Source: Escherichia phage CMSTMSU
Sequence record: MH494197.1
Direction: 5' to 3' (one strand)
Length of the DNA stretch: 64,000 nt
Shown piece after piece: positions 1 to 64,000 of the stretch. How positions within the stretch are numbered: the stretch's first letter is position 1; each line of letters opens with the position of its first letter. The notes under the pieces were generated by a model that worked only from the letters and a program-made list of their open reading frames with translations, made no database searches and was not told the DNA's origin. The translations under genes and the position numbers were made by a program.

Positions 1-2216
1 TCACATCAAACGTTACGTTACCACCATTAACCAGAGAACCACACAACATCTCTTTAGCTAGTGGAACACGGATGTTTTGCTCAATAGTGCGTTTCATTGG
101 ACGTGCACCCATCCCAACTTTAACACCATTTGTTGCCAACCACTCACGTGCCGCTTTAGTCAGGAAACTTTAACTTTGCGGTCTTTGATTTGTTCATTCA
201 GACTACCCATGAACTTATCAATGATGCTGTCAATCGCTTCGCTGCTTAGGTCTTTGAATGTCACAATACTATCGATACGGTTGATGAATTCAGGTGGCAA
301 GAATGCTTTAATCGCTTTATCTTGTGCTGTATCACTACCGCTCATCCCAATACTACGCTTGGTTGAATCTGCTGCACCAAGGTTAGTTGTCATAATAACA
401 GTTACGTTATTGAAGTAAACAGTTTTACCTTGTGAACCAGTCAAACGTCCTTCGTCCAGAACCTGTAGGAAGGTTAGTAGTACTTTACGATCAGCTTTTT
501 CGATTTCATCAAGCAACAGTACTGCATTCGGGAACTGCTCAATCTTGTCGAGTAGCAGACCGTTACCGGAATCGTGACCAACATAGCCGGAGGTGAACCA
601 ATCAGTTTAGCAACAGTATGTTCCTGTGAAAACTCGGACATATCGAAACGAATCAGTTCAGAGCCAGTTGCATCAGCCAGTGCTTTGGTAATTTCAGTTT
701 TACCAGTACCAGATGGCCCAACAAACATGAATGCACCTTGAACACTTGATTTATCACGCAGACCAGCACGAGCTACCATCACGTTATCAACCAGTTTCTG
801 TACTGCTTCTTCTTGACCGTATACACGAGAACGTAGTGCATCTGGTAGATTACGCATACGTTCACTTTCAGTGCAAGCAACCACGTTAATATCTAGGTTT
901 GCGATACCTGCAACAACTTCTTGAATCAGTGCAACAGTGATGATGTTATCATCAGTTTCACGAGAACGTACTTTCGCTGCTGCCGCATCCATTAGGTCGA
1001 TTGCTTTGTCAGGGAAGTGTTTGTTCTTCAGGAACTTATCACTTAGTGTAATAACTGCATCCATTGCTTCAGTACTGAACTCTACGTTATGGAAAGTTTC
1101 ATAAGTAGATTTCAAACCATTCACAATCGCACGGGTTTCATCAATTGTTGGCTCAACTACATCAATTTTCATGAAACGGCGAGTTAGTGCACTATCTTTT
1201 CGATGTTTTACGATATTCATCGTAAGTTGTTGCACCGATTACACGAATCTCACCACGAGATAGTGCAGGTTTGAGCATGTTACTCATATCCATAGAACCG
1301 TTGCTTGCTGAACCAGCACCAACCATAATATGGATTTCATCGATGAACACAATAGTGTTTTCACGTTTCTTCAGTTCTTTGAGTAGGTTATCGATACGTT
1401 CTTCGAACTCACCACGGTACTTAGTACCAGCAGTCAGTGCACCTACGTTCAGAGACAGAATTTCAACATCTTTAAGATGCTCTGGTACTTCACCATCAGC
1501 GATTGCCTGTGCTAGACCATCAATGATTTGAGTTTTACCAACACCAGCTTCACCAGTCAGGATGGCATTCTTCTTAGTCTTACGGGCCAGAGTTTCAATC
1601 AGTGCAGAAAGCTCTTTCTGGCGACCAATCATTGGTCAAGTTTACCTTCTTTGCAAGTGCGGTTAGGTTAGTGGTGTAATCTTCTAAACCTTTTGTTTGG
1701 ACGATGGTTGTTGTTGTGCCACTTTTTCTCCCCAGTTGGCTCATCACTAATGCTTTGAAGGTTGATTCCGTTGTCGATTGCTTCTACGTGCTTCTGTAAA
1801 GTTCGTGCTGCTTCAGTACAAGTGATACCCTCTTCACGCAATGCTGCTTCTAGTGCAGTATTTGGGAATGACAAACACTCAAACAGTACAAAATAAGCAT
1901 CAATTGAGAAATCATCACGTTTAAGTTGCTCAATTACTGATTTCTTAGAAAGTTCCTGAACTACACGGTTCACAAGAAGTGATGTGCGGTTCGCTTCATC
2001 ACCATCAGCACTTTTAGGTGCATGTGGAATGTTGTATTTTTCAGATATGCAATCAAACGACCGTGTAGGTTGTCTGCATCGATGTTCATATCTTCAAATA
2101 CTGCTTTGATGCTATCGATTGTCAGTACTGTAGCACTTAGATGGTCAATAGTCAAGAAGGTATGACCCAGAGAAGTTGCCAGTTCGTCGCTTTTTGAATA
2201 ATTGGGTAAGATTCAT
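1..2216 (-). CDS. clpA: ClpA-like AAA+ unfoldase (Clp N-domain plus two AAA modules); 3' end runs off the window start; frame broken into at least 5 pieces
   Basis: ORFs 1970-2155, 1668-1973, 1192-1632, 474-1235, 160-516 together follow ClpA order: N-domain [11 protein letters not shown], Walker A GEAGVGKT, Walker B IVFIDEIH, second module GPSGTGKTE and [29 protein letters not shown] before ATG at 2216. Confidence 0.8.
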
Positions 2217-2254
2217 GTATTCTCCTAAATGAGTAGTCACTCTAATTAATAAAC

Positions 2255-2282
2255 ATTATATCACATTCTTTGCGTTTGTCAA
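2255..2282 (-). promoter_or_regulatory. sigma70-like promoter TTGACA-N16-TGATATAAT upstream of clpA-like gene
   Basis: Reverse complement reads TTGACA aacgcaaagaatgtga TATAAT with TG extended -10, about 40 nt upstream of the ATG at 2216. Confidence 0.45.
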
Positions 2283-2286
2283 CAAG

Positions 2287-2302
2287 GTAAATAAAGATAT
2301 AC
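2287..2302 (+). promoter_or_regulatory. late-promoter-like motif GTAAATAAAGATATAC
   Basis: Resembles the CTAAATA..GTATA motif found upstream of the fibre and tube genes; lies about 25 nt upstream of the ATG at 2326. Confidence 0.3.
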
Positions 2303-2325
2303 CCGATTTATTTTGGAGACAAACA

Positions 2326-3812
2326 TGGCATATAGAATGTGGAAAAAGGTAGAACCAATGATTACAAGTTCATTGACTCTGCCATAGCAGAACAATACAA
2401 CATCGGTGGTGTTGACATGTGGCTTTATGCCTATGTCGGACCAAAACAAGTCGCTGATAACACTGATTTATCATATGGCGGTGATTATTATGGATCAGAT
2501 AGTACCGTTGTGTCAAGCATTGGTGATTTAATTTTGGTGACACTCCAAGTCGTAACTATAATCTCGAAGCTATCACCTTAAGTTGCGTCTACCAAGTCCA
2601 AGAAGCAACTCCTGACTTGAAAATCCCGATTGTTCTTCAACTTTAACACTATGGACATCACAATTCATTATAACACAATGATTCAGCGTTTGGGAAGAAA
2701 AATTATGCCGTGACGTAATCGAACTTCCTAACTTACGTGATTTTGATGTACTTGGTAAAGATTCTGGTTTAAACCGCTTCTATGTAGTACAAGATGGGTT
2801 TAGAACGTCAGAAGGTTACTCAGTTACATGGCAACATCACATTTACAAACTCCGTGTTAAACCTCTTACTGATTCACCAGAGTACTCTGACCTTCTAGGT
2901 AACAATAACTACCCTGATGACCCAGATGATCCAAACAACGGCAATGGTAATACTGATGATGGCTCTTCAGAGAACAGCAGCTATGGTAATGAAATGGATA
3001 TTATGAACCGTATCATTATGCAAGCTGATGATGAAGTACCATACATTCATTTTACTAACGAACACTTGTTCGATGACAGACCAGATACTGTTGATTTGTC
3101 TAAGTATATGCTAAATGGATACGAATTACCAGAGGAACCAGCAAATAAAATGTATTTCCTCAAGAAAACTTACCCAGTACTGAAAGAACTATCTAATGAT
3201 ACATGGATTTCTGTAGAAGTCAAGCGTGGAACAATCTTTCCTCGCAAACCGATGGATGGTGACTTCTTCTTTAAAGAAAACGAGGCTGATGTCACTGGCT
3301 TCTCATTGTATCAATACGATAAATCTGCCAAAAGTGGCTAAATTGTGATGTTGAGTATACTACAGAAAGCACACCACCACAAGGGGTTGATGATTTTTAT
3401 ATTGAATACAAAGAACCACACATTTATCAGTACTTAAATGGTAAATGGGGAGAACCAGAAGTAACTTACGTTAATGACCCATTCACTTCTAATAGTGTTT
3501 ATGGAAATATCGATTCACAACAAGATTATCGTCCTAAGATTCCTCCAGCACGAGGTACAGTTCCTGAAGGTAACATGTTCCCAAGTGATGCAGTTGATGG
3601 TGATTACTACTATCGTACCGATTATACACCAGTAACCCTATGGGAATACAGTGCGTCCAAGAATTCTTGGGTGATTTTCGATTACGGTGGTAGAAAACCG
3701 TGGAAGGTGCAGATCTTGCTCTAACAGAATTTGTTAATAGCCCGAACCGTGTGCCATTACATGATGCAGTTAAACCTAATACAGTGTATCGTATACATAA
3801 GGATTCAGAATG
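2326..3812 (+). CDS. hypothetical virion (baseplate/tail?) protein, about 495 aa, frame broken
   Basis: Same-strand ORF pieces (2339-2581, 2994-3341 and unlisted frames between) read as one protein with an Asp/Pro/Gly-rich linker; stop overlaps the next start as ATGA at 3810. Function not recognised. Confidence 0.4.
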
Positions 3813-5623: not shown

Positions 5624-5625
5624 TA

Positions 5626-12271: not shown

Positions 12272-15200
12272 ATGTACTCGATTAAAACAGATCTAGATAT
12301 AACTGGTGGTGCAACGGTTGGTAAAGATCTTCTTGTGAAAGGCGATGCAGTATTCAATAAAAATCTAACAGTTAATGGAACTGTAACTTTTGCTGACGCT
12401 GTATTCACTGCAATTGAAGCAGGAACTGTAGACATTTCATCTACACTAGATGTTGCTGGTAAAGCATCATTGAATGGTGGAATTGAAGTTCATGGTAATT
12501 CCGTAATTGGTAATTTGCCTGTTGGCTCTGATACTGCAACGATTAATTCTAATGCACAATTCCAAAGCCCAGTATCAATGGCAGGTAACCTAACACAAAC
12601 CGCTGGCACTGCTGTACTAAAAGATACCCAAGTGGCATCAATGGATGTTCTTGGAACTTCTTCATTTAAAGGTAATATTACTGCTGAAACTGGCACTACC
12701 GCAGCATTTGACAAAATAACTGCAACTGATGCAACATTCACAAACACTGCAACTACTGATATCACATCAACTGGAACTGCAAACTTTAAAGATGTGAATA
12801 TTTCCGGTACACTAGGTGGAACATTTAGTCTATCTGATGTTAATGCAACAACTCTAACTGTTTCTGGTTTAACCAGTCTACAAGGTGGTGTTACATTAGG
12901 TTCCAACATTACTGGTGTGAATAGTAGTGCAAACTTCCGTGATATTAAAATTGGTTCCAATGCTGCAAACACTAACTACCGTTTGAGCTTTAACTATTCT
13001 GCTCCAAGTCTTCGCCCAACTGTAATTCTACAGAACGAAATCCAATCAGAATTGATGTCTCCAGCTACCCTAAGTGTATTGAAAACTGCATCTTTTGGTG
13101 ATTCGTCATTATCCACTTTTGGTATTACTGGTAATGGTCTAAACAAACTAGATTACCTAACAGTATCTGGTAACTCTGTTCAAGATCCAGCAACTCCACT
13201 ATTACAAGTAACTTCAGGTAAAACTAAAGTTCATGATTTCGAAGTAACAGGAACTGCAACTATTCCTAACATTGAAAGTACTGGTACTGCTAATTTTAAT
13301 AACATCAACGTATCTGGTACACTCGGCGGTACTTTCAGTCTTGATGATATTGAAGCAAACACTCTAACTGTTTCTGGATTAACTAGCCTTGTTGGTGGTG
13401 TAACTTTAGGTGCTGATATTTCCGGTGCTAATAGTACTGCTAATTTTAAAGCAGTAAGTTTAGGACAAAACGCAGCCGATGCTAACGTTAAGTATGGTTT
13501 TGCTTATTCTGCCCGGTGCTCGTCCAACTGTAATTCTACAAAATGAAATTCAGTCTGAACTAGTATCTCCAGCAGTACTAAATGTACAAAAACTGCTACC
13601 TTTGGTGATGCATCTCTTGCAACCTATGGTATCACAGGTAACGGTCTAAACAAACTAGATTATCTATCTATTACTGGTAATGGTACACAAAGTCCAGCTA
13701 CCCCACAACTACAAGTAGCTGGTAAATCAGTACTAAATGATGTTGAATTCACTGGTACTGTAACTGGTCTAACTGTTGATGTGAGTGGACAAGATCTAAC
13801 TCCTAAATCAGTAGTTGCTGCTGAAGCAATCAAAGGTCAAACCCTTGAATCAGTTGGTCAAACCACCGTAGGAACTAACCTACAAGTTGGTGGAACTGCT
13901 AATGTTGTTGGTGCACTAACTGGTACTGCTGCTACCTTCACTGGTGATGTAAGTGCTGCTAAAGGTACTTTCAGTGGTGATGTTAGCGTTACTGGTCAAA
14001 CTGTAACTGTACGTGATTTAGTAGTAACTGGTACAACTACTGGTGTAACTGCCCAAGCTGATGTTGATGGTCTTGATATCGCCCCAAATAAAGTTGATGT
14101 TACAACAACACTATCTGTTGCTGGGGACACTACTTTAGCTGGCCTAACTGCTAGTTCAGTAACCAGTACTGGTGATGTTACTGGTGCGTCTGTATCTGGT
14201 AATACAGTAACTGCGGCTGGTGCACTATCTGGTGGTTCTCTTGCAGTAACTGGTGCTGGTTCTATGGCTTCACTAACTGTTCCAAGTATTACTGGTGACA
14301 CTACTTTTGCTAATAACGTAACTATTACTGGAACACTAACTCCGAGTAGTATAGATTTAAGCACTACTGATGTAAGTGCTGCTTCTTTAACAACTACTGG
14401 TAACGTAACTGTTGGTGGTTCTCTTGCAGTAACTGGTGCTATTGATTTGTCTGCTGCTGATGTAGTAACAAAATCAGTTAGTGCAACTAACCCAAGTACA
14501 TTTGGTGTAATTAATGCATCTTCTGTTGTCGCAACTGGTGACGTTTCAGGTGGCACTCTAACTACTACTGGTGCAGCGAAAGTAGGAACACTAACTAGTA
14601 CTGGTGTAGTATCTGGTTCGCGTTTGTCTTCTGGTACTGCAACAATCTCAACTTCTGTAACAGTTCCAACTTTACAAGCTGAAGCTGCTGGTGCTGGTAC
14701 ACTAAATCTAGCAAGTAATGTTGTCGCGGCAAAGATCTAACTGTCACTGGTGTATTCAAACCTGAAGGTGGTCTTGACCTAACAACTGTTGATATTACTG
14801 CAAACTCACTAACTACTACTGCTGATGTTAATGTTGGTGGAAACTTAGTAGTTGATGGTACTTTTGACCTAAGTGCTGCTGATGTGTCTGTGAAATCTCT
14901 TGCAAGTGCAGAGACAATTACAAGTGCTGGTGTTATTACCGTTACCGATTCAACCAATACTAGTTCGTTACCTAAAATTACTTCAACTGATGCAACACTC
15001 TTTACAGTAAATGCAGGTACTATTAATGCAACTGGCAACAGTGTACTACAAAGTGTATCAGCTACTCAAGTAACTGCAACTAGTGCTGAATTGACTGGTG
15101 TTGGTCTTGGTCTTCAAGTCGATAATGATGCAAACGTTGGTGGTGCATTATCTGTTGGTGGAATCGCAACTGTTGGTTCTTTAACAACAACTGCTGCTTC

Positions 15201-17201
15201 TCTTAATATTGCAAAAATACTGCAATCACTGGTGATTTAGCTGTATCTGGCACACTAACTGCTGGTTCAATCGACCTAAGCAATACTGATGTAACCGTTA
15301 AATCTCTTGATTCACTAGGTAACGCACACATTGCTGGTGACCTAACTGTAGATGGTGCATTCGACTTAAGTGCAACTAACCTTGTAGCTGCAAGTCTAGC
15401 AAGTACTGGTTCTACTACTGTTGGAACTGATCTAGTACTAACAACTGGTGTTGTGACTGGTAGCCCAGCTATCTCTGGTAATACAACAATCGGTGGAACT
15501 CTTGGTGTAACTGGTGCTGTTAACCTAACTGATATTGTTAATATCGGTAAGAAAGTAACAGTGAGTACTGGTGGTATTCAGGTAGTTGATGGTGGTATCA
15601 ATACTAACACAATTAACGTTTCTGGTGCTTCTACTCTAGCAGGAACTTCCATTACTGGAACTTTAGGTGTAACTGGTGCTTCTACTCTAGCAGGTGTATC
15701 TGCGACATCACTAACAGTTTCTGGTGACAGTACTGTTCAGAAACTAACTGTCCAAGGTGAATTGATCCCACAAGGTGGTCTTGACCTAAGCGGTGCAGAC
15801 ATTACTGCTAATAGTCTAACTACTGCAACAACTATCAATGCAACTGGCCTAAGTACTCTAAGTGGTGGTGTTAGTACTTCTACTGTGACTGCATCTGGTC
15901 TAGCAACTGTTGGAAGTTTAACTTCTACTGCAAACGCATCAGTTGGTGGCAATTTGGGTGTAACTGGAACTCTAGATGTTACTGGTGCTACTACTGTATC
16001 TTCACTAACAGCTACTGGTGCAGTGAAAACTGGCACAACCCTAACTGTTGGTACTCCAGTTGGTGAACAACCTGAAACTGTACAGATCATTCCAGATACT
16101 TATATTGCTGGTAAATTGCGTGTAATCGGCGGTATTAACGCTGAAATCGACGTAAGTGGTCAAACACTAGAACCATATGCAATTGAAGCTGCTGCAACAC
16201 TATCTGCTGTTGGTAACATTACTTCTGGTGCAACCATCGTTTCTAAAGCTGCAACAATTGGTGATGTTGGTTCACAAAACAACAACCTAACTGTTAATGG
16301 TAACGTAGTAACTAATGGTGACTTCACCGTTACTGGTGTACTAAATGCACAATTGAACCAAGCAGATTCCGATGTAGCTGTTAAATCTTTAACTGCAACT
16401 AATAACGTTGCGGCTGGTACTTCAATCACTGCTGGAACATCCATCACTGCATCAGGCTTACTAAAAGGTAATTCGTTAGAAGTCACCACTACTGGTTCAT
16501 TTGGTGGTGCAGTAACTATGTCAAGTGGTGCAAACATCACTGGTACTGTTGGTATCACTGCTGGTGACCTAACAGTAGGTGGTAATATCTCTGCAACTGG
16601 GACTGCTGGATTCGGTGCAACAACCGTTTCTACCATTACAACATCAGGTTTAGCTACACTTGCAAGTGCATCTGTAACTGGTGCTCTAACTGTAGGTGGT
16701 ACATTAACTGCAAATGGTAACACTGTGATTGGTGATGCTGCTGCTGATACTTTAACTGTAAATGCAACATCGACATTTAAAGAGAACGCAACATTTGATA
16801 AGAACCTAACAGTGACTGGTTCTATTAACACCACCACTGCAAACTTCACCACAAACAACATGGTAACTAAGAAATATTCTGTTATCCCTGCTAGTGTTAC
16901 TGCTTCTACTGCTGCTGTAGGTGGTACTTGGACACCAGATGGTACTACTAACGTATATCGCTTAACTCTTGACCAAAGTGTTACAATGGATTCCATCGCG
17001 GGTCTAATTGGTAGTGGTCAAGCATGTTCAGTGTATATCTATGTAACTCCATCTGTTGCTGATACTACTTTCACCTTCGGTGGTGCATACTCTGTAGTTT
17101 CTGGTACAGTAAGTGCTGTAGTTGGTCAAACAAGTATTATCCAAGTAATCTATGATGGTTTCAGTACTGTGTTTGATACCTTCGTTGCACAACGTGTATA
17201 A
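12272..17201 (+). CDS. giant tail fibre protein 1 (about 1640 aa; Thr/Gly/Ser/Val-rich repeats; several frameshifts)
   Basis: Same-strand ORFs 12272-13546, 13781-14740, 14884-15240, 15453-17201 with in-phase unlisted segments between; repeated LTVSG/VTGT motifs; C-terminal tip ...VYIYVTPSVADTTF...VIYDGFSTVFDTFVAQRV; RBS GGAGGGA. Confidence 0.7.
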
Positions 17202-17347: not shown

Positions 17348-20300
17348 ATGTACTCGATTAAAACGGATCTTGATGTATCTGGTAATTCCACGGTAGGTAA
17401 GGATCTTTTGGTCAAAGGTAATGCAGTATTCAGTAATGACCTAACGGTTAATGGGGAAGTGTCTTTTGCTAACGCAGTATTCACTGCAATTACCGCTGGT
17501 TCTGTGAATGTCACAGGTGCATTGGATGTTGCTGGTAAGGCAACCTTATCCGGTGGTGCTGATGTTTCAGGTGCTGCGACATTTGCAGGAAACATTACTG
17601 CTGCTGACGGCACAACTGCAAAATTTGATAACTTAGAAGCTAATTCAGGATCATTTAATTCTGTTGAATCAACTGATATTACTTCAACTGGCACAGCAAC
17701 TTTTAAAGATGTAAACATTTCTGGTACACTTGGTGGTACTTTTAATCTTTCTGATATTAATGCTACAACACTTAATGTGTCTGGTGCTTCAGCACTAACT
17801 GGTTCAGTCACATTGGGTGCAAATATCACTGGTCTTGCAAGTACTGCAAACTTCCGTGATATTCGTATCGGGCCTAATGAAGAAGGTCAAGCATATAGAC
17901 TAAACTTTGGTTACACCGTTCGGACAACGACCAACCGTTCTTCTACAGAACGAAGTTCAATCCGAACTAATGTCTCCTGCTAAGTTGAATGTTCTACAAA
18001 CTGCAACATTTGGTGATTCTTCACTTTCAACTTACGGTATTACAGGTAATGGTTTAAACAAATTAGATTATGTAACTATTTCTGGTAACGCAATTCAATC
18101 ACCAACCACTCCTTTACTTGAAGTAACTAAAGGTAAAACTAAAGTTGTTGATTTAGAAGTGACTGGCGTAGCAACTATTCCTAATATCGAAAGTTCTGGT
18201 ACTGCAAACTTTAACAACATCAACGTATCTGGTACTATTGGTGGTAGTTTTGATTTAGATGATATCCAAGCAACAACATTATCAGTATCCGGTGCTTCAG
18301 CACTAACTGGTGCAGTTACATTGGGTGCAAACATCACTGGTCTAGCAAGTACTGCAACATTCAAAGCAATCAATTTGGGTCAAAATACCGCTGATGCTAA
18401 CGTTAAGCTAGGTTTTGCATATACTGCACCTAGTGCACGTCCAACAGTCTTGTTAGCAAACGAAGTTCAATCTGAACTAATGTCTCCTGCTAAGTTGAAC
18501 GTTCTACAAACTGCAACCTTCGGTTCTGCTGCACTATCTACCTATGGTATTACTGGTAATGGTCTAAACAAATTAGATTATCTAACAATTACTGGTAACG
18601 CAACACAAAACCCTGCTACTCCACAACTTCAAGTTGGTGGTAAAGCAATTCTTAATGATGTTGAATTTACAGGTACTGTAACTGGCCTAACTGTTGATGT
18701 GAGTGGACAAGATCTAACTCCTAAATCAGTAGTTGCTGCTGAAGCAATCAAAGGTCAAACTCTTGAATCAGTTGGTCAAACAACTGTAGGTTCATCTCTA
18801 CAAGTTGGTGGTACTGCAACTGTTACTGGTGCATTATCTGCTGCCGCTGGTACTTTCAGTGGTGATGTTAGTGGTTCTAAAGGTATCTTCAGTGATAGCG
18901 TATCCGGTACAAGTGCAACCTTTACTGGGGATGTTAGCGGTGATAACGCAACCTTTAGTGGCGATTTATCTGCTGTAGCTGGCACTTTCAGTGGTGATGT
19001 AACCGTAACTGGTCAAACAATCACTGTTAAAGACTTGGTAGTAACTGGAACTTCAACTGGTGTAACTGCAATCGCTGACGTTGACGGTCTTGATATTGCT
19101 CCAAACAAAGTTGATGTTACAACAACTCTATCTGTTGCTGGTGAATCAACTCTTGCTGGTGTTACAGCAACTTCAATCAATAGTACTGGTGCAATTGCAG
19201 GTACTGCAATTTCTGGCTCTACTATTACAGCAACTGGTGAAATTTCTGGTGCATCATCTGTAGTAACTGGTCTTTCTAAATCTGGTAGCGTTGAAACTGG
19301 TGCTCTAAAGGCATCTTCTGTTGAAACTGCAATCATTAGCAACACTGCTGGTGTGTCAATAACAAACAACACTTCAATTGCAGGTAATCTATCTGTAACT
19401 GGAACTGTTACCCCGTGCAATTGACCTAAGTACTACTGATATTGATGCTAAGTCTCTAACAACTACTGAAGGTGCTAACATTGGTGGTGACCTAGTTGTT
19501 GCAGGTACAGTTGATCTAAGTGCTGCTGACGTTGCTGTTAAATCTCTAACCAGTACTGGTGCAGTTATTAGTTCTGAAGGTACAGTAAGTAGTGTTCTAC
19601 CTAAACTTTCCAGTACTGAAGCTAATATTACCACAGTAACTGCAACCACTGCAAATGCTACCACACTAAATGTAACTGGTACATCAACTCTAGCTGGTGT
19701 TAACGCTTCTGGTGCTATTACTTCTGCAACTAACATTACCGCTACTGGTGTATTAAAGGTGCATCTGTTGAAACTGCGTCAATCAGCAATGCTGATGGTG
19801 TAGCAATTAACAATAACACTACAATCACTGGTAATTTGGACGTATCTGGGACATTGACCCGTGCAATTGACCTAAGTACTACTGATATTAGTTCTAAGTC
19901 TCTAACCACAACTGAAGGTGCTACAATTGGTGGCGATCTTGTGGTAGCAGGTACTGTTGATCTAAGTGCTGCTGATGTGTCGGTGAAATCTCTTGCAAGT
20001 GCAGAGACAATTACAAGTGCTGGTGTTATTACAGTTTCGGATACAGTGAATTCTAGCACTCTACCAAAACTAATTACTACTGATGCAACTATTGGTGCTG
20101 TCCATGCAGCTACTATTGAAACAACTGGTTCAAGTACACTAAAACAAGTATCTGCTACTGAAGTAACAGCTACAAGTATTGTACTAAATTCAGTTGGTGA
20201 AGGTTTACGTGTTGACAATAATGCAAACATTAATGGTATATTAAGTGTTAATAATATTACTTCTACCAATGATACTATTGCAATTGCGAAAAGTGCTGCT

Positions 20301-23050
20301 ATTACTGGTGATCTGACCGTATCTGGAACTGTTACCCCGGTGCAATTGACCTAAGTACTACCGATATTAGTTCTAAATCCTAAGTACTACTGAAGGTGCT
20401 ACAATTGGTGGTGACCTAGTTGTTAATGGTTCAATTGATTTAAGTTCTTCCAATGTTTCAGCAATTACCCTTGCTAGTTCTGGTAATACTACCGTTGGTG
20501 GTAACCTAGTACTAACAACTGGTGTTGTGACTGGCAGCCCATCTGTATCTGGTAACCTTTCAGTTGCAGGTACTGCGGCAGTAACTGGTGCAACTACCTA
20601 ACTGATATCGTAAATATCGGTAAGAAAGTAACTGTAAGCACTGGTGGTATTCAAGTAGTTGCAGGTGGTATTAATACCGACGCTATATTAGTATCCGGTG
20701 ATACAACTTTAAACAACACTACTGTAAACACTACCTTAAATGTAACTGGTCAAAGTACAGTTGCTGCACTAAGTGCTGCATCTTTGAATGTATCTGGTGA
20801 TAGTACTGTTCAAAACTAACAGTTGAAGGTGAATTGGTTCCACAAGGTGGTATCGACCTAACTGGTGCAGATATTTCTGCTAATAGTCTTGCAACTGCTT
20901 CAACAATCACTGCAACTGGACTAAGCACACTAAGTGGTGGTGTAAGTACTACTAATGTTACTGCATCTGGTACAGTGAATGCTGGTAGTTTGGATGTTAC
21001 TAACAACGCAACCGTTGGTGGTAATTTGGGTGTAACTGGTTCATTAACTTCTGGACCATTGAGTGTAACAGGCATTGCGAATATTACTGGTGTAACAACT
21101 GTTGGTTCATTGGTTTCCGGTGCTGTATCTGGTAGTACTGGTACATTTAGTTCAACATTAGGTGTAACTGGTGCAGCTACATTTGACAATGACGTAACTG
21201 TTGAAGGTGTATTCACCCCAGCAGGTGGTTTAGACCTAACAACTTCTGATATTACAGCTAAGAGTTTGTCAGTATCTGAAACTATTCACTCTGATGGTGC
21301 AGCTTCCTTTGGTGGTAACACAACAGTAGGTGGTACATTGGGTGTAACTGGTGCAGTAACTGCTCCATCGGCAACCCTAAGCGGTACTGGTACTGCACTA
21401 GCAGTAACTAATAATGCAACTATTGGTGGTACATTGGGTGTAACTGGTCAAGCAACACTTGGTTCTATAGTAACTTCTGGTGTATCTGCAACAAGTGGCT
21501 CTTTCAGTACTACTCTTGGCGTTACTGGTGCTGCGACATTTGGAAACGATGTAACTGTAGTTGGAACACTAACTCCGGTAGCTTAGATCTAACTGGTGCA
21601 GATATCTCTGCTAAAACACTAACTCTATCTGAAACATTAAATGCGACAGGTAATACTACCCTTGGTGGAACATTAGGTGTAACTGGTTTAGCAACAATTG
21701 GTGGAACACTAACGTCTGGTGCAGTAACTGCTCCATCTGCAACCTTGAATGGTTCAGGAACTGGTCTAGCAGTAACTAACAACGCAACCGTTGGTGGTAC
21801 ATTAGGTGTAGTTGGTCAAACAACACTAGGTTCTGTTAAAACTGGTGCAACTCTAACAGTTGGTACACCATTAGGTGAGCAGCCTGAAACTGTACAGATT
21901 ATGCCAGACACTTATATTGCTGGTAAACTACGTGTTGAGGGTGGTATTAACGCAGATATCGATGTTGGTGGACAAACACTAGAACCGTTTGCAGTAATAG
22001 CATCTGATTCTTTATCTTCTGCTGGTAATATTACTGCTGGTGCGGCAATTATTTCAAGTTCTGCAACAATTGGTGAAGTCGGTTCACAAAACAACAACCT
22101 AATCGTTAATGGTAACGTTGTAAACAACGGTAACTTCACTGTTACTGGTGTACTAAATGCACAATTGAACCAAGCAGATTCCGATGTAGCTGTTAAGTCT
22201 TTGACTGCAACTAACAACGTAGCTGCTGGAACCACATTAAGTGCAGGTACTGCAATTACTGCTGGTACTTCCATCACTGCAACTGGATTACTTAAAGGTA
22301 ATACTTTATTACTACTACTGGTTCATTTGGTGGTGCAGTAACTATGTCAAGTGGTGCAAACATCACTGGTACAGTGGGTATTACTGCTGGTAACCTAACA
22401 GTGGGTGGTGATATCTCTGCAACTGGCACTGCTGGATTCGGTGCAACAACCGTTTCTACAATTACAACATCAGGTTTGGCTACACTTGCAAGTACATCCG
22501 TTACTGGTAACGCAACAGTAGGTGGAACACTAGCAGTAACAGGAGCACTAACTGCGAATGGTAACGTAACATTAGGTGACGCAGCGGCTGACGTTCTAAC
22601 CGTTAATGCAACTTCATCATTTAAAGAAAATGCTGTGTTTGATAAGGCAGTAACAGTAACTGGTGAACTAACCACTACTAATGCTAACTTAACTACTACA
22701 ACAGTAACTACCAAAAGTATGATGTAATCCCAACTCAAGTTACATCATCAGTAATTGCTCCAACCGGAACATGGACTCCAGATGGTACAAGTAACGTGTA
22801 CTTCATCACTCTAGACCAAGATACCACGTTGGCTCCAATTACTGGCCTAATTGGTGGCGGTAAAGCTGCATCAGTATACATCTATGTTAAACAAGATACA
22901 ACTGGTAACAGAAACTTTACAACTGATGGTACTTATGCTGTTGTTGATGGTGAACTAAACAAAACTGCTGGTAGCGTGACCATTTACCAAGTAATTTATG
23001 ATGGTGTAAGTCCAGTTACTGATTTGTTCATTGCACAACGTACTGCTTAA
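17348..23050 (+). CDS. giant tail fibre protein 2 (paralog of fibre 1; about 1900 aa; several frameshifts)
   Basis: N-terminus MYSIKTDLDVSGNSTVGKDLLVKG matches fibre 1 MYSIKTDLDITGGATVGKDLLVKG; long near-identical nucleotide blocks shared with fibre 1; divergent but homologous C-terminal tip ending VIYDGVSPVTDLFIAQRTA. Confidence 0.7.
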
Positions 23051-40033: not shown

Positions 40034-42688
40034 TTATTGAGTCTTTTCAATACGAATAGGTACGTAAATGAAGTTGATAGACTTAGTAGGTTGGATTGCA
40101 ATATCCATCCAAAGTTCGTTACGGTCAATACGTTCAGAAGTGTTGTTACTTTCGTCACAAACTACTGCGAAGTTGTATAGACCTTGTTGTTGAACGATTT
40201 CAGCTAGAAGCTATTCACTACACCACTGAATTCCTGACGAGTACTTGGAGTATTCAAACGGAATAGGAATGGTTCAGAGATGATTTCTAGTTGACGACGA
40301 ATGTAAACAACCAAACGAGCAACGTTAACACGGCTTAGTGCAGAGGTTTGGTTAGCAGATAGTGTTTTATCACCATATACTAGCAAGCCACGGTTAGGAC
40401 GCATTGCAATTGGGTTAATGTTGTTGGTATACATCACGTCACGTTGACCTTGGTTGTATACTACTGGTTGATATTCACCTTCACTGTTAATGAAACCAGT
40501 ACTTGCAGCGTTGGTTACAACACCACGAGTAGTACCAGCAGGTGGATACCATACAAAACTAACACTATCACTGTACGCATAGGTACGCATTGCAACAGTA
40601 CTGCCGGAACCGCTACTTCTTCACCATCAACGTTAGTACTTAGACACCAGCCCATGTACTGAGCAGCATAATCATATGCAGAAGTACGGCCTACTGAACC
40701 ATTACTTGGTGCGTTATTCGCGTTAGTAGCCCATTCTTGAACTGCACTACCGTTTCCGGTTGGGTTCAAACGAGCAGGTACATCAGTTACAATGAACGCT
40801 GTTTCTTTACGATCAGTGTTTAGGGTAATACATTCATCTAGAGTTTCTACATAACCGGAACACAGATTAGGTTGAAGTCGATGAATTCAGAACGGATATC
40901 ATCATTACCGACGATTACAGCAGCTAGTGCTTCAACGATTAGTTTGCGTTGTGCTGCACGACCGAATAGACCTGCACCATCAAGACTAACACCACTAACA
41001 ACTTGCCATTGACCATTAACCATTTTCTTAACAACACCTTCGGTATTACCGAGGTCAATTGCAAGCATACCATTCTGATAAAGAGCAGCAGAAGCAACTT
41101 GTTCAGGGAAGTTAAAGTCAGCGAAAATCATACCGTTTAGAGTACTTTGGTCAGTATTGTCTAGTTTAACCCACTCACCATCAACGTTACGATAGAAATC
41201 ATAACCATCAATGCCTTGAGATAGAGGGCGTACCCAAATTAGGCGGTCAGCCGATGGCTCATCAACTTGAACGTATTTGTTATCTTCTTGTACTAGATCC
41301 CATTCGTCATTTGCAACATCTGCAATGTACATGGTAACAGTTAGGTTATCTGAATTACCGAAATCATACCAAATAGTACCGTCTTTAGCAATACTACGTG
41401 GAACAGAAGAGCTAACACGCAAGTTATTAACGTTAACTAGAGAATAGTTGTTACTATCTACAGTTAGTTTAGCTAGTTCATTCGCTGCAAAAATATCATC
41501 ACCGCTTTGGGTAACTTTAAAGCTATAACCTTTGGTGTTTGTAACTACCAAACCGCCATTAGATTCACGTTTGAATTTGAATCCATCATTGATAAGATCA
41601 GCACTAACATTTAGATTATCGATGATAGTTTGAGTATTAATTACGCCACCTTGTGGTACTGCAAGTACTTTAACAGATTTGTTTAGGTAAGCGAAAGTCA
41701 AATAACTATTTTCACCAGCTTGCTCAATAACAGTTTCACCTAGTGGTACTGCTGGAGCACTAATTGCTGATAGTTTTGCACTTTGAATATAGAAAGAGAA
41801 ACTCTTACTATCGTCATCAAAACGGCAAGCAATATAACTGTTGTTTAGTACACCACTCTTAGCTTCAACTTCTTGGAAAGAATTACCAGTATATGCTGGA
41901 ACGATATTCCAAACTTGAGTTAGAGATGCATAACGTTTTAGAACAAAGCGAGTGCCAAAATAGTTTGAACCATTTTGAGTATAACCATCACGAATCCATA
42001 CGTTACCTTGTTCAACAGTTGAACCAACTGGAACTTTGTTGATTGGTGATAGATAAGTTTCAACCTGTACTAGACCAGATGCTGCACGTTTGTACATAAG
42101 CATTTGACCATTACTTGGCTTATAACGTAGAACTAGATCATCAACGTTTAGACCAACTAGGCTAACATCGTCAACTTCTTCAGAACTTACGATGGTAACA
42201 GGCTTCAATTGCCAGTCATAGAAGCTGCTTGGGCTGTCTTTCTTAGCAACATAAGCTTCAATTTGTGATTGAGCAGCATCAAACCATAGAGTACCATTTG
42301 GTACTGGGCCAGTTGGTGCAGTTGCACTTGGTGATAGTTGAGCCAAATCGATATCAGCACGAATAACATATGCACGGTTGGTGATACCTAGATAAGAATA
42401 TACAGCATGTAGACCATATTCGTTTAGTTCGTCACCTTGAACAACTGAACCATTGTTCATTTGGAAAATTGGTGAGCCAAATGTATCTAGTGAGCTTTTC
42501 TGTGATGTTAGTAGCTGTAGTTTACCAGCGTTTGCTTTAGTGGTTCCGCAGCGATTGCACTGCTACCGGAACAAGTTTGTCTTCAGCAGTAGCGATTACA
42601 AATAGTGGTACTGTGCGAGCAGCAGCAGTACTCATACTTTCATCAGTTACTGAAATGGAAACGCCGGTGAGAGTAGATCTCCTGCCAT
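40034..42688 (-). CDS. tail sheath protein (about 880 aa; frame-broken)
   Basis: N-terminal region resembles the gp18 family (LLSP..., LHAVYSYLGITNRAYVIRA); C-terminus RVNVARLVVYIRRQLE and NELWMDIAIQPTKSINFIY; RBS GGAGG before ATG 42688. Confidence 0.85.
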
Positions 42689-50089: not shown

Positions 50090-50602
50090 TCATATAAAGT
50101 AATTATACATTTTATTGTACAATATAAAAGGTCTTTCACATTATCATAAGTAATATCAGATATATCATGAATTAATGATAACTGAAAAATGAAGCTTCGT
50201 CTATCTCTACTGGGATTATAACATCATAGTCTTCGTCAATTTTATGGGTGTAGTATTTTATGTGATCAGCATTCAACACAAGGTTGTATTTTGTATCATC
50301 TTCAATTAATCCGACAAATTGAGATTTTTGATTAATAAAAATCCAATCCCAACACAACGGTTATCTGGATATGGATAGTACCATCTATTAATAACTAGGT
50401 GTTCAGGTAAGTCCATATCATGTGTTGATATTAAAGATTTTACAATTCCCATCCGGAATAATTCATAATTAAAACTCCATAAGAAAAGGGACAGAATAAT
50501 CTCTGTCCCTTTATTATATCTTACTCTTCGTCTTCAGTCAAGTCTTCTTGAACTGGATGTTCGGGTGGTTACGGCGATGCAATTTGATGCTTTTGTCTTT
50601 AC

Positions 50603-50865: not shown

Positions 50866-51741
50866 TTAGAGTGAGCTTAACAGCAAATCCGCTCTGTTTG
50901 TAACTTGGCGATACCACAAGGAATTCATGATTTCTTTCTTGAACTTCTTAGGGTTATCCATTTTAACACTTTTCCAAAGTTTGTCAAATGTTGCCAACTT
51001 ATCAACGCCCATTGTGTATGACATTTCAAACAGGATACGCTGCTGTTCTTTTGTCAGATTAACTGCATCTTTCTTCTGCATCAATAGTGTAAAGTCCTCG
51101 TAAGTCCTTTTCATATCTTGCATTAAAAGTTTGTTGGCCTGTGCTTTGGTAATCCCGTTTCTGTACTTCATTGCATCAGAATCTTTCTTACCCAAATAAT
51201 GCCCATAACCAATTGTATAATTACCTTTCATGTCCTTATAGGGATGAAATTTAGAATTGTGGAAAGGAACTCCAACTTTCCCACCAAGTAATTTACGTTT
51301 GTTCTTGGACTGAAATTCAATAGAACCTTCAGCTTCTTTGATGTGATCGACAATTTCTGGATCTTTATAATCAAACAGTACAGTCACATCTGGTAACAAT
51401 ACGTTCTTCAAATCCTCTTTGTTGGGATAAAGATACCTGAGAAGTATGAAGAGTTGCATTTAAGTTGATATTCTTCAACAAAATGACATAATCTTCAATC
51501 TGTACATTTTAGGTTTAAATTTCTGTGCAATAGAATAATAACTATCTCCGGTTGAACCGTATAATGTTTCTCGCTGCTTGGAACTGCCTTTGGTACTGAT
51601 ACCTTTAGTAGTTCCTGCTTTTGAATTTACAACTTGTGGTTTTAAATTATGCACCTGACTTTCGTCTAATGATGATGCACGATCACTTTGAGAAAAACCA
51701 TAAAATCCAATCGCAGCGAATAGGGCTGATGAAACTAACAC
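50866..51741 (-). CDS. GH24 (T4-lysozyme-like) muramidase with LysM-like motif and N-terminal hydrophobic segment (one frameshift)
   Basis: GNYTIGYGH and SLWYRQVTNRADLL match T4 lysozyme motifs; LysM-like YGSTGDSYYSIAQKF; N-terminal Gly/Ala-rich LVSSALFAAIGFYGF. Confidence 0.7.
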
Positions 51742-51951
51742 GCCTATGGCAATTTTAGTTTTCAGTGCTTTTTCGCTTTTTCAAAACGCCTCCTTTGTTG
51801 GTTGTTAACAATGAGCAATCACAAAGAGGGCAAAGAGGCCATTTGCAAAAGCCTCATTGGACTTTCTACAGTACTCATTTGTTCTTTGGAACATTTAAGT
51901 AGTATAGCATACTTTTTAGTTATATCAAGACCTATTTACCAAATAACCACA

Positions 51952-58726: not shown

Positions 58727-58918
58727 TCACTTCGTTCTCTCGTAACTCAAGAAGTCACTACGTTTACTTCGTAAACTAGTTCCTTCTGAAAATGATAATG
58801 TACTTTAAAAGCTTGACGGATTTGTTGAGGACTATTTCATCCCCGAGGAAGAAGGTAATAAAAAGAGACAATTAAGTCTCTCTGACGATGATGGCATCGG
58901 ATATTATCGAATTGCGAA

Positions 58919-59097
58919 TTTCTCAAATTTTGGACGGATCTTTCCTGTACCAAAATTTAGAGAAAAGCGGGTTGCTCGGTTTCTCTCTATCGCAGTCATA
59001 TGCAACGGTCGCTGGTCTTTTCATCAACAGCACTCAGTACTAAACTCTATTCGATCAAAGTAGTACCTGTTCTCAAATTTTGGACGCAACTTTCTTG
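58919..59097. repeat. two copies of a ~28-nt direct repeat (TTCTCAAATTTTGGACG...) about 150 bp apart in a relatively GC-rich noncoding stretch
   Basis: 58919-58946 atttctcaaattttggacggatctttcctg and 59070-59097 gttctcaaattttggacgcaactttcttg; each contains its own hairpin. Confidence 0.5.
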
Positions 59098-59295
59098 TAA
59101 AATCGCGTCCACAATCCTGAACTCCTTAGCAAATTCGTAAGGTGCGAACCTTATACATCTATCTAGGAACTCTCTGTGTGCTTGGAGTTCTTTATACAGC
59201 CGTGTCGCCGTGATTCGTGGTCTTATCTCGTGTTTGTTTGATTGCCAGTACTCTAACAGGTTTCTTTTGCTGTTCGCTACAACGGTAAAGCTCAT
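59047..59295 (-). CDS. hypothetical basic protein, 82 aa
   Basis: ORF with RBS AAGGA; preceded at about 59374-59405 by CGGGACA-N14-TGATATAAT. Confidence 0.35.
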   Translation of the reverse strand: MSFTVVANSKRNLLEYWQSNKHEIRPRITATRLYKELQAHREFLDRCIRFAPYEFAKEFRIVDAILQESCVQNLRTGTTLIE

Positions 59296-59565
59296 CTATC
59301 CTTTACATTTTCAAGAGAAGTAGGTTCTCATTATCCATTTTTCAATGTCCGTTGTCATTTTACAATATACATTATATCACTAGGATGTATTATGTCCCGT
59401 TACATGTATACCTTTTTCAAATCCTTGGAACAACGGTCAAAATTGTGTTGATGAATTCGACATCCTCTTTGATATTGGAGTCTATAGCATCATTCTCGTT
59501 TCTTGTTGTGTTCCTGTATTTGTGTTCAGGGTGATTGTATACCACCTTGACTACATTATTTAGGT

Positions 59566-60807: not shown

Positions 60808-60919
60808 TTTTAATCCTCGGATTTAATTTTAACCTTAACATCTTGATTTTGTAAATCACGAATAGTTTTAATTAATGCATCATGTTTTAGTGCACAGTCA
60901 TTGTACATTGCATCCCATT

Positions 60920-61123: not shown

Positions 61124-61492
61124 TTGAATTTATTCCTCGCTGCAAGGGAATTCTGTTTAAGTTCATTCAGAAGTTTAACGCCATCTTCATCTAGACATAC
61201 GTTTTTGTAAACTTCTCTTTCTACTATAATAGGCACTTGTGTCTCGATAACTTTAGCATTATCTTGCATTATCTTTTTGGTTTCTATATAGTTTTTGCAT
61301 TTTCTTGCTGCATCTTAGCGAGTGCAGAATCAACTTTCTTTTCTATTTTTGGTCAATACTTTCTTTATAACCAGTATAATAAGTATTTGCTGACCATCCA
61401 CCGTAAACACAACCTGCCATTACTCCTACTACCAAAATTGGTTTCCAATATGGTATTAAAACTTTTGAAACAATAATTTCTAGTACACTCAT
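61121..61492 (-). CDS. type II membrane protein with N-terminal TM and charged helical domain (i-spanin-like candidate; frame-broken)
   Basis: MSVLEIIVSKVLIPYWKPILVVGVMAGCVYGGW then Lys/Glu/Gln-rich segment; RBS AGGAGA. Confidence 0.4.
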
Positions 61493-61717
61493 AATAACAT
61501 CTCCTATAGTTGGTAATATTATTTAGAGTGTACTATATTATATGTTTACAACATTTTTGAATATGATCTACGAGTTTATACAGTTTAGTGTTTTCATTCT
61601 CGTATTCCAAATCAACTTCAACTTTGAATTCTTCTTCAAGTTCCATGATCATTTCAATCCAGTCAAGCCAATCGAATTTAAATTTTTCCACGACTTCACA
61701 TTTAGTAAGATGGAAGT

Positions 61718-63159
61718 TCATTGATACATCTTTTTCGGATGCATTTTGTCGCGACTTGTAATGAATTTGACAATTGCTTTTTCAACGTCAGTTAGTTCAC
61801 GTGTGCGATATTCTGGTTCAAGATACCATTCGCCATTATTGATAGCTTCCAACGAAAGTCTAAGTTCATGCATTAGTTTATAACGATCAGTACTTTTATG
61901 GATGCGGTTAACTTCGCGATTCAGTACACGTAGTGCGTCTTTGATTTGTTCGTTTAGCATAACAATCCTCTTATTTTTTCTGTACCATTGCATTTCACGG
62001 ATATCTAATAGTACCTTCGTAGCCAACTTTATGTTTGGTCGCTTCGGTAGATGGGTCTTATGATACGCCACATTTCGGATGTAGCCTTTTCGTTGAAATA
62101 ATCCATAACTTCTTGATACAACCACTTCCCGTTACGAATGTCCATCAACATAGCAGCATCCGGTCGGTGAACTTGGATGATGCCAGTTTCAAGTGCTTCC
62201 TGTGCTGTATTCAGCAGCCTGATTATGCATAGCATGTTTGCAGTCATAACCGTGGTGTGATTCAAGAATAGCACGTTTGGCATTACGATTCTGCTTCCAT
62301 TTGTGATAACTCTTACGGTTCTCACTATTTTCTTTGTATTCCTTTTCATTGAATTTTACAATGAGTTCAGGACGAACTTTCAATTCTTCTGTAGTACGTT
62401 CTTTGTTGAAGTAACGTAGTGAACCATCAGCATTCACTGTACTTTCATTCGGGTTGATAATTACCCCAAAGATGTTTTCACCGTAATGGATTAGTTCATA
62501 TCCAGAATTGTAATTCAATAAATTGAAATCACGATCTAATACTTTATCAGTACTATAATTATGTACTAAACGTACAAAATGATATTGTTTCAATGCTTGT
62601 GTTGAAACTTAATAAGTATCACGCATGTATTTTTCAAAATCAATTTTTGTAGCATTGAATGGGTGAAGATTGGATTTATTCAAACGTCAGAATATCATTC
62701 GTCAACTGGATGTTCTTCTAAAATTTCATTTAGTTTACGTTCAGCAATTCGTTCCTTATCGAGCCAGCCGTGGTGATTAGACATACGCTTAACCTGATTG
62801 TATGCATATCCACTGTATGAGTGTGCAATCTTTGAACTCAATAATTGCTGATTGAATGAGCGTAGATAGTCATAGATTTCAGTACTTTCTACGATGTGTT
62901 CCGGTTTAACCCATAGTGATTCAAGAATGTTTGGGTTAGCTTCAGTATGAACTTAAGTACTGATTGATTTCATAAAATTTAGTATCTTCTTCAGAAGTAT
63001 CTGAAACTTCCTTAACATTAAAAAAGGAGTTAGGATATATTCTTTGTTTGCAAGGAAGATACCACGATAATCTGTATCACTTTCTGGTGTGCTTGTGCCA
63101 TACGCCTGTGAACCAGCTAAGTGTTTCACAATAGTTTGTTCTAGAAAATTGTTTTTCAT
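61718..63159 (-). CDS. nucleotidyltransferase-fold (Pol-beta-like) protein, about 480 aa (heavily frame-broken)
   Basis: N-terminal LAGSQAYGTSTPESDTDYRGIF fits the G[GS]x9-13 D-h-[DE] motif; ORFs 62953-63159, 62189-62593, 62029-62349, 61718-62125 on the same strand. Confidence 0.35.
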
Positions 63160-63586
63160 AAGTAAATCGTTAACTCCTTTAGAAAACCATTATAGTATCG
63201 TTTAAAATCATGATCCAGTACTTGATAGTCATTGTAACTAAATCCAAGATTGATGATGGTATCTTCTTGGAAGAATTTCTCTTCATTCATTACTTCGATG
63301 GGTTCGTATTCTTTCCCACCTTTATATACTTTGTAAAGAACATACCATCATTGTTAATTTCAACGTACATGAAATTATTTTCTGGATCTCGTGGACACAC
63401 AATGTTTAGTGAACTTGTCCCATTGTTATTATATTCGTATGAAATAATATCAAAAGAATCGATACCATAACATTTGGACTTTTCTTTGTCACCAAGACTT
63501 TTCTATCTGTACTCATATTGCGTATAGTACTGTAGATATCATCGATTGTAGTCATAATTAACCACCGTACTTTGACTTATATGTTT

Positions 63587-63979
63587 CTAAAGATAAAGAA
63601 ATGCGATTTTGCTTTTAATTCTTTCATCAATATCCTTTGAATTCTTAACACTTCTGTATACATCAGCTAATAAATTATAATCTTCTTTATTTGAGCTATG
63701 TAATGCCCAACCTATATCTGTTTTGATTCGAACATATGCTTTATTTGATGTGAAATAAAAATTGAATCCGTTAGACCCATCAAAAATATCATAAGTATTT
63801 ACCCAATCTCCATAAGGAAAACTCATTGGTACTGACTCATAATCAATGGTGATATCCGATAAATTTTTAGAACAGTACTTTACAAAGTGGTAAACAATCG
63901 GATCACATTTTGATAATTCGTATTTGTATTCAATGATAGTTTTTCTATTAGTATCATTGATGGCATATTCTTTTATCAA
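63587..63979 (-). CDS. hypothetical protein, 130 aa
   Basis: ORF only. Confidence 0.35.
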   Translation of the reverse strand: MIKEYAINDTNRKTIIEYKYELSKCDPIVYHFVKYCSKNLSDITIDYESVPMSFPYGDWVNTYDIFDGSNGFNFYFTSNKAYVRIKTDIGWALHSSNKEDYNLLADVYRSVKNSKDIDERIKSKIAFLYL

Positions 63980-64000
63980 TGGACTTTTTGATGATAAGAG

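Follow-up and report, generated by a model that had tools for sequence, protein, structure and literature searches.

The window, by which we mean the whole 64-kb stretch of DNA analysed here, comes from a jumbo E. coli phage of the PBECO4/121Q-like group (Asteriusvirus), with fEgEco12 as its nearest relative. Over all 64 kb it is colinear with the PBECO4/121Q-like jumbo myophages fEgEco12 (PP777464), EC.P1 (PQ657772), WPEC5, Ecwhy_1 and TH47, and, leaving gaps aside, it is ~ 99.5% identical to fEgEco12, with 328 mismatched positions among 63,991 columns. The window and these relatives have the same genes, comprising a ClpA-like gene, two long fibres, a colanidase spike, a sheath, tube paralogs, thyA, tdk, a lysozyme and a CCA-type enzyme. 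Gene identities were verified by Pfam searches with the intact reference copies, in which the tube proteins had no match, and the MoxR label of the AAA ATPase gene corresponds to a single weak AAA match. No tRNA or Rfam family was found in the window, and an Rfam search of the intact EC.P1 region that corresponds to the second half of the window found none either. The features and their coordinates are presented in Table 1.

Reading frames in the window are extensively broken. The longest raw open reading frame encodes 582 aa, whereas the same genes of the relatives encode proteins of up to 1,906 aa, and 66 of the 76 fully covered coding sequences carry at least one frameshifting indel. Frame breaks in conserved genes are therefore pervasive, as the initial annotation had stated, and lie far beyond chance; every gene that it named as split (ClpA, thyA, tdk, sheath, tube paralog, lysozyme, CCA enzyme, MoxR, VWA and the fibres) contains such events. 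The ten genes free of frameshifts are short and almost devoid of homopolymer runs of at least 6 and of CCWGG motifs, with a mean of 0.2 such sites per gene versus 1.4 in the broken genes. Repairing the indels alone, and nothing else, reopened 92 of the 95 stop-free intervals of at least 100 aa found in the reference. A lone internal stop persisting in the lysozyme gene after repair was considered as a nonsense mutation and rejected, as a patch with a 2-bp deletion (~ 51630) is 1–2 bp away and gap placement is arbitrary there.

Table 1 Features of the window and the indel events recorded in them
Feature	Coordinates	Strand	Observations
Whole window	1..64000		Consensus of a PBECO4/121Q-like jumbo phage, very probably full of errors
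ClpA-like AAA+ gene	1..2216	-	10 deletion events (window 1-2220); 3' end outside the window
Destroyed Dcm site, example	2620..2635		References ATCCC[AG]GATT; window ATCCCGATT
Long tail fibre 1	12272..17201	+	1,644 aa in relatives; 4 frameshifting deletions
Run in long fibre 1	13588..13592	+	A5 in the window; A6 in 3/3 references
Long tail fibre 2	17348..23050	+	1,906 aa in relatives; 11 deletions, 10 frameshifting
Dcm site with exactly 3 bases deleted (CC[CTG]GG)	23200..23215	+	Gene 23115-23891 still in frame
Run in virion structural gene	33341..33346	-	T6 on the + strand (A6 at codons 3-5, gene 32370-33351); 7 in 3/3 references
Tail sheath gene	40034..42688	-	887 aa in relatives; 7 deletions, 6 frameshifting
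Lysozyme/LysM gene	50866..51784	-	7 frameshifts
Intergenic patch of clustered atypical deletions	58840..59190		Around hairpin-forming sequence (CCCCCCGCAGGGG in references)
Probable local consensus collapse in nucleotidyltransferase gene	62686..62698	-	8 window bases for 41 reference bases
thyA			1 event
tdk			6 events
Tube paralogs			4 and 2 events
CCA/poly(A)-polymerase-family enzyme			5 events
AAA ATPase			2 events
VWA-like DUF2201 protein			3 events
Colanidase spike			12 events

These data raise a key question: do the frame breaks belong to the phage or to the way in which its sequence was obtained? Relative to fEgEco12, the window contains 278 deletions and a single insertion (binomial p = 6e-82), and the comparison is similarly one-sided against EC.P1 (284:3) and Ecwhy_1 (303:18). 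Such a strong deletion bias is expected when native Dcm-methylated DNA is sequenced by nanopore and the consensus is left unpolished. The deletions remove 350 bases, or 0.54% of the sequence, which corresponds to ~ Q22.6 against fEgEco12; the window is thus ~ 350 bases shorter than its relatives, solely through what appear to be deletion errors. The single-base character ascribed to the breaks holds for most of them, with 222 of the 278 deletions being 1 bp long, but not for all, as deletions of 2, 3 and 4 bp were also present (43, 10 and 3, respectively). Three references agree with each other against the window at 251 of 270 deletion loci, which are thus private to it. TH47 (MT446416), an unannotated record flagged UNVERIFIED, served as a fourth reference and concurs, with 178 gaps in the window versus 21 in TH47; the suspicion that TH47 itself has the same error profile was ruled out by its normal run spectrum and its 31 CCWGG sites in 47.5 kb. 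The natural background is given by EC.P1 versus fEgEco12, with 12 gap openings per 331 mismatches, against 251 deletion loci per 169 substitutions in the lineage of the window. By context, the deletions comprise 195 that shorten a homopolymer, 43 at CCWGG and 40 other small deletions in local patches.

For the largest class, the chance of shortening depends almost deterministically on run length. With increasing length of the reference run, the rate rises steeply from 0.4% (length 2) through 1.3% (3), 5.5% (4) and 43% (5) to 93% (6), 95% (7) and 100% (8–9), and the run spectrum of the window is accordingly truncated, with 17 runs of at least 6 compared with 78–80 in each relative. The two runs that the initial annotation singled out as break sites, the A6 near 33340 and the poly-A run near 13585-13592, were located exactly, each being one base shorter than in all three references. 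Its attribution of the indels to homopolymers in general holds for ~ 70% of the deletions (195/278, counted in runs of at least 3) and for ~ 170 of the 278 when runs of at least 4 are counted, as it had proposed, the rest lying outside such runs; it does not cover the ~ 15% at CCWGG, a component that it had overlooked, or the ~ 14% belonging to neither class.

The second class is defined by the Dcm motif. All 45 CCWGG sites of the reference are damaged in the window (41 by deletion and 4 by substitution), and not a single CCWGG is left in it, versus 48.6 ± 6.6 expected from shuffled sequences. Control motifs were hit at 0–7% (GGWCC 2/27, GATC 3/114, CCGG 0/26), so the systematic damage at CCAGG/CCTGG does not extend to them; in particular, a check of the Dam (GATC) sites for surplus deletions found none. 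The substituted sites read CCTGG>CACGG in three cases and CCTGG>CCCGG in one. An exact 39-mer across one of the Dcm-site deletions matched nothing in collections of viral, genome and metagenome contigs, and the best phage records, at ~ 99% identity, were different sequences. Deamination of 5-methylcytosine yields C>T, a pattern that these substitutions do not display, and we know of no mutational process that strips 1–3 bases at all 45 CCWGG sites.

Could the indels nevertheless be real, with the window representing a decaying or defective phage copy (a non-viable variant, for instance, or a remnant) in which genes are becoming pseudogenes? Pseudogenised or defective prophage remnants do contain frameshift-broken genes like those of the window, and the large proportion of frameshifted genes would agree with decay. 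Two further observations point in the same direction: deletions lie 2.9 times more densely in intergenic DNA, and runs of length 4 are shortened more often in intergenic (13%) than in coding DNA (5%; p = 0.009). The length-4 difference has the direction that selection would give, although sequence context can also explain it. The overall intergenic excess was examined as a sign of selection and discarded, since after per-run normalising it disappears for runs of at least 6, the shortened fraction being 91% between genes and 96% within them.

Decay, however, should bring insertions, nonsense changes and a relaxed dN/dS, and the indels of the window run almost entirely in one direction. Among 128 private coding substitutions, 103 are synonymous, 25 are non-synonymous and none is nonsense; the synonymous share of 80%, against 22% expected for random changes (p = 6e-44), gives no sign of relaxed selection on the affected frames. 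Furthermore, 93–100% of the runs of at least 6 were shortened at a private substitution divergence of only 0.26%, and the complete loss of CCWGG sites has no counterpart among known mutational processes. The breaks track sequence context deterministically, whereas those of prophage remnants accumulate at random. Unlike such remnants, the window has no bacterial flanks: it is colinear with virion-derived genomes, and a megablast of 8 kb against plasmids and complete E. coli genomes returned no match. We therefore regard a decaying copy as exceedingly improbable. The behaviour of the runs of at least 6, the success of the repair and the synonymous bias all indicate errors that are blind to coding potential and overlie intact genes. 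Its private substitutions, 169 in number and 80% synonymous within genes, mark the window as a distinct isolate.

A further alternative is that the runs are sites of programmed ribosomal frameshifting or of slippage during transcription, in which case the split genes would still be expressed; many breaks do coincide with slippery A/T runs. A programmed site should be conserved in close relatives, yet the breaks are not: relatives that are ~ 99.5% identical with gaps ignored have one more base at these runs, and their frames are uninterrupted at the positions of the breaks. Moreover, recoding would have to act in 66 of 76 genes with up to 12 events in each, and the breaks at CCWGG have no slippery sequence. 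The probability of this explanation is practically negligible.

The frame breaks are thus almost certainly a sequencing artefact and not biology. The initial annotation had already favoured uncorrected long-read or homopolymer-prone sequencing over pseudogenes, and this diagnosis is borne out by the 278:1 ratio, the privacy of the deletions, their dependence on run length, their blindness to coding, the synonymous excess and the restored frames.

Another important question is which technology produced these errors. Most of them concern homopolymer length, a weakness common to flow-based chemistries, so 454, Ion Torrent or PacBio CLR might be considered as sources. The 454 and Ion Torrent platforms read amplified, methylation-free templates and both over-call and under-call runs, and the errors of PacBio CLR are mainly random insertions, which are averaged out in the consensus. 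Errors independent of methylation and running in both directions would thus be anticipated from flow chemistry; instead, the damage is specific to CCWGG and the deletions are one-sided, a combination that neither 454 nor Ion Torrent fits. Since all 45 Dcm sites were destroyed and none remains against ~ 49 expected, nanopore sequencing of native methylated DNA is the better candidate, and Dcm errors combined with homopolymer errors are what has been published for nanopore (PMC6591954). An origin on one of the other platforms appears very improbable.

On the evidence of the sequence comparisons, the frame breaks are in all probability consensus errors of an Oxford Nanopore assembly of native phage DNA that was never polished and not re-basecalled with a methylation-aware model. 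The comparisons show directly that the indels run one way, depend on sequence context, are private to the window and are blind to selection; the sequencing platform and the methylation of the DNA by Dcm are what we infer, very strongly. Under this explanation, the basecaller would under-count single-letter runs, the loss becoming more certain the longer the run. The Dcm methylase of the host would place 5-methylcytosine at CC(A/T)GG and so distort the current signal, and a basecalling model untrained on 5mC would drop or miscall 1–3 bases at every such site. The two processes together would account for 86% of the errors, while the remaining 14% would be small local patches of consensus breakdown.

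A profile of this kind has been described by Wick, Judd & Holt 2019 (Genome Biol 20:129, PMC6591954) for R9-era default models. In native Enterobacteriaceae DNA, the errors of default ONT basecallers are dominated by Dcm motifs, followed by homopolymer length, at a consensus of ~ Q22, and errors outside these two categories are counted as a smaller class of their own, as in the window (PMC6591954). The accuracies are also comparable, Q22.6 for the window and Q21.9 for the last Albacore version (PMC6591954). The proportions of the two main classes differ: in the window, whose platform we infer, homopolymer deletions outnumber Dcm errors (195 vs 43), whereas Dcm errors make up ~ 70% in Klebsiella (PMC6591954). 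This difference is likely due to composition, the phage being AT-rich (~ 37% GC), and Dcm errors are likely the fewer because 64 kb contain 45 CCWGG sites against ~ 240 runs of at least 5.

The 40 atypical deletions require separate consideration. Nearly half of them (19/40) cluster at 56–64 kb in tight patches, and a search by eye for a motif shared among the 40 found none evident. Several lie in purine-rich or hairpin contexts. A mixed reading would accept that most of the changes are artefactual but hold that a minority of atypical ones is genuine, or marks a second feature of the DNA by which basecalling is upset at these places. The clustering, with several events beside hairpin-forming sequence, and the replacement of 41 bases by 8, whose net loss (33 bases) is divisible by 3, would suit this reading. 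On the other hand, all atypical events are deletions private to the window, most of them would shift the frame, they have no visible common motif, and an error class outside Dcm and homopolymers was also recorded by Wick et al. (PMC6591954). We consider the mixed reading unlikely, and rather improbable the particular proposal that within this set of 40 deletions, including the 41-to-8 replacement, a minority represents real isolate differences or else reflects a second feature or modification of the DNA, so far unrecognised, by which nanopore basecalling is locally disturbed.

In practice, gene calls, proteins, pseudogene counts, motif-avoidance statistics and recoding claims derived from this window or assembly are unreliable until polishing. 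The total absence of CCWGG could be misread as restriction-site avoidance, and the split genes as small novel ORFs, as pseudogenes or as cases of programmed frameshifting. Such assemblies can be recognised by three warning signs: a CCWGG count of 0 versus ~ 49 expected, which needs no reference; the near absence of runs of at least 6, judged by relatives or by the expected run spectrum; and one-sided deletions against close relatives, for which close relatives are required. They also allow other findings from the same window to be discounted or re-evaluated.

As for the phage itself, the sequence beneath the errors points to an ordinary and viable phage related to fEgEco12 and EC.P1 (~ 99.5% identical with gaps left out), with genes that would be intact. 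The error pattern further implies that the packaged DNA of this jumbo phage was essentially fully Dcm-methylated, because all 45 CCWGG sites were destroyed. If Dcm methylation is indeed present at essentially every site, the phage would have been grown on a dcm+ host and would carry ordinary methylatable cytosine.

Megablast against the phage collection showed that the window is colinear end to end with PBECO4/121Q-like jumbo E. coli myophages (Asteriusvirus), its nearest relatives being fEgEco12, EC.P1, WPEC5 and Ecwhy_1 (~98-99% identity, gaps counted). Blocks of 25,000 window bases each pair with 25,078-25,139 bases in the closest relatives; thus, the window is systematically shorter. The relatives possess long intact genes (fibre genes of 4,935 and 5,721 nt, a ClpA-like gene of 2,289 nt and a sheath gene of 2,664 nt), whereas their counterparts in the window are frameshifted, and the longest raw ORF is 582 aa. 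The window was aligned to three references (fEgEco12, PP777464; EC.P1, PQ657772; Ecwhy_1, MH791411), and the EC.P1 annotation was projected onto it. At least one frameshifting indel was found in 66 of the 76 fully covered CDS, including every gene named in the initial annotation, which had correctly reported pervasive frame breaks; the other ten CDS are short and nearly devoid of long runs or CCWGG sites. Pfam searches of the intact reference copies agreed with the proposed ClpA-like AAA+ protein, thymidylate synthase, thymidine kinase, sheath, lysozyme (with LysM), CCA enzyme (CCA/poly(A)-polymerase head domain) and VWA protein (VWA-like DUF2201). For the ATPase called MoxR and the tube proteins, the breaks were verified, but the same searches yielded a weak AAA match for the former and no match for the latter. 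Both homopolymer sites singled out in that annotation were exact (see the table). The two long tail-fibre genes are paralogous, with common segments of ~0.7-1.2 kb (77-84% nucleotide identity, off-diagonal BLAST).

Coordinates of the features discussed (window positions)
Position	Feature	Observation
12272-17201	Long tail-fibre gene	Paralog of the next fibre gene
13588-13592	Homopolymer in fibre gene	A5; A6 in all three references
17348-23050	Long tail-fibre gene	Paralog of the preceding fibre gene
33341-33346	Homopolymer	T6; T7 in all three references
50112-50466	Small gene	Opposite 18080-18496 of L004, the EC.P1 counterpart of the window's second half
58727-59400	~690 bp region	Free of annotated CDS in EC.P1 and Ecwhy_1
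~58.84 kb	Hairpin CCCCCCGCAGGGG	Surrounded by a deletion patch
58922 and 59072	28-nt motif CTCAAATTTTGGACGSAWCTTTCYTGTA	Two copies, spacing 150 bp
62686-62698	Patch in nucleotidyltransferase gene	8 bases for 41 in all three references; net loss 33

The indels are one-sided. Against fEgEco12, the window has 278 deletions, 1 insertion (binomial p = 6e-82) and 328 mismatches; the corresponding deletions and insertions are 284 and 3 against EC.P1, and 303 and 18 against Ecwhy_1. The three references together oppose the window at 251 of 270 deletion loci, and comparison with a fourth genome, TH47 (MT446416), placed 178 gaps in the window against 21 in TH47 itself. Gap openings are rare between references (12 per 331 mismatches for EC.P1 and fEgEco12); in the window's lineage, 169 substitutions are accompanied by 251 deletion loci. 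Ecwhy_1 and TH47 are both marked UNVERIFIED in GenBank. Ecwhy_1 differs from both other references by deletions at ~14 loci and by 18 insertion events; some errors may therefore lie in its own sequence. Opposite both long fibre genes, TH47 aligns as one hybrid copy, where the alignment leaps from ~16,700 to ~21,800 of the window and the stretch is ~5 kb shorter; ~2 kb of TH47 align neither to the window nor to fEgEco12. The small gene at 50112-50466 is divergent in EC.P1 (417 nt vs 381 nt in fEgEco12, 26 non-synonymous differences), suggesting a cassette exchange in EC.P1 rather than a feature of the window.

A key question is whether the broken genes are pseudogenes or sequencing errors. Four tests agree that the genes underneath are intact. 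When only the missing bases were put back and all substitutions were left as they stand, stop-free intervals of at least 100 aa in the reference were recovered exactly in 92 of 95 cases; the exceptions were an antisense ORF, the nucleotidyltransferase gene (an unalignable patch inside) and the lysozyme gene, whose one leftover stop is 1-2 bp away from a deletion patch of 2 bp with arbitrary gap placement. Substitutions private to the window lineage comprised 103 synonymous, 25 non-synonymous and 0 nonsense changes (80% synonymous, where random changes would give 22%; p = 6e-44), indicating that this lineage was under strong purifying selection on the very frames that its supposed 251 deletions would destroy. 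The deletions themselves are blind to coding potential: among runs of 6 or more, 96% in coding and 91% in intergenic DNA are shortened, and the 2.9-fold higher raw deletion density in intergenic DNA is explained by a 3.4-fold higher run density there. Fourth, the ten CDS spared by frameshifts are the short ones noted above, with hardly any long runs or CCWGG sites. One-sided, private, run-length-bound and coding-blind deletions over intact frames thus support sequencing error over pseudogenes, as initially proposed.

Following the scheme of Wick et al., with homopolymers taken as runs of 3 or more, the 278 deletions were sorted into 195 homopolymer, 43 Dcm and 40 other events. The shortened fraction of reference runs climbs with length almost deterministically: 0.4% (length 2), 1.3% (3), 5.5% (4), 43% (5), 93% (6), 95% (7) and 100% (8-9), with losses of 2-3 bases frequent at runs of 7 or more. 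Because long runs are shortened, the run spectrum of the window is truncated, with 17 runs of 6 or more vs 78-80 per relative and with G or C runs of at most 4. The homopolymer origin assigned to the breaks therefore holds for only ~70% of events, and their single-base nature for most, ~20% being losses of 2-4 bases.

Most non-homopolymer deletions fall at CCWGG (CC[A/T]GG), the motif methylated by E. coli Dcm, a class that had gone unnoticed. Not one of the 45 CCWGG sites of fEgEco12 is undamaged in the window: 41 have lost 1-3 bases and 4 carry substitutions, while control motifs are barely affected (GGWCC 2/27, CGWCG 1/20, GATC 3/114, CCGG 0/26; Fisher p = 5e-13); the Dam sites, GATC, thus gave no comparable signal. 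CCWGG is entirely absent from the window, where dinucleotide-preserving shuffles predict 48.6 ± 6.6 occurrences. Deamination of 5-methylcytosine produces C>T changes and does not match the substituted sites (CCTGG>CACGG, n=3; CCTGG>CCCGG, n=1).

The 40 deletions outside both classes are all private to the window and share no motif that we could see; 19 lie in tight patches at 56-64 kb, among them the patch around the hairpin at ~58.84 kb and the one at 62686-62698. The loss at 62686-62698 is far above the typical error size; either the consensus collapsed locally, or the difference is real and in frame. For the atypical deletions, local consensus breakdown is the likeliest explanation, and a few could be real. 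Region 58727-59400, opposite which fEgEco12 has only two tiny annotated ORFs, also contains hairpin-forming sequences; no repeat of its 28-nt motif is expected by chance, tRNA and Rfam searches of the region gave no match, and it may have a regulatory function or encode a small RNA.

Taken together, the deletion bias, run-length dependence, complete failure at the Dcm motif and overall error of 0.54% (Q22.6) point to a single cause. Amplification-based flow chemistries are blind to methylation and over-call runs as well, and PacBio errors consist mostly of random insertions; given the Dcm signal, the suggested long-read or homopolymer-prone sequencing, itself supported, narrows to what we infer to be Oxford Nanopore sequencing of native, Dcm-methylated virion DNA. 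Under default-model basecalling, bases would be lost in runs, and methylated CCWGG would be misread as deletions or substitutions at every site. These features match the published profile of nanopore consensus from native enterobacterial DNA with default basecalling: Dcm-motif errors, arising from models untrained on Dcm-methylated DNA, are followed by homopolymer-length errors as the next largest class, at ~Q22 (Wick et al. 2019, PMC6591954). In the window, by contrast, homopolymer errors dominate, which reflects an AT-rich phage genome in which A/T runs abound and CCWGG sites are few.

The frame breaks are thus almost certainly an artefact of sequencing and assembly, not biology, and the practical use of this finding is a warning on this assembly: gene, pseudogene and small-ORF calls, apparent recoding sites and apparent CCWGG avoidance in this window are untrustworthy before polishing. 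Basecalling failure at 45 of 45 CCWGG sites further implies that the packaged phage DNA was probably near-completely Dcm-methylated, which would mean that the phage was propagated on a dcm+ host and that its cytosines are unmodified and open to methylation.
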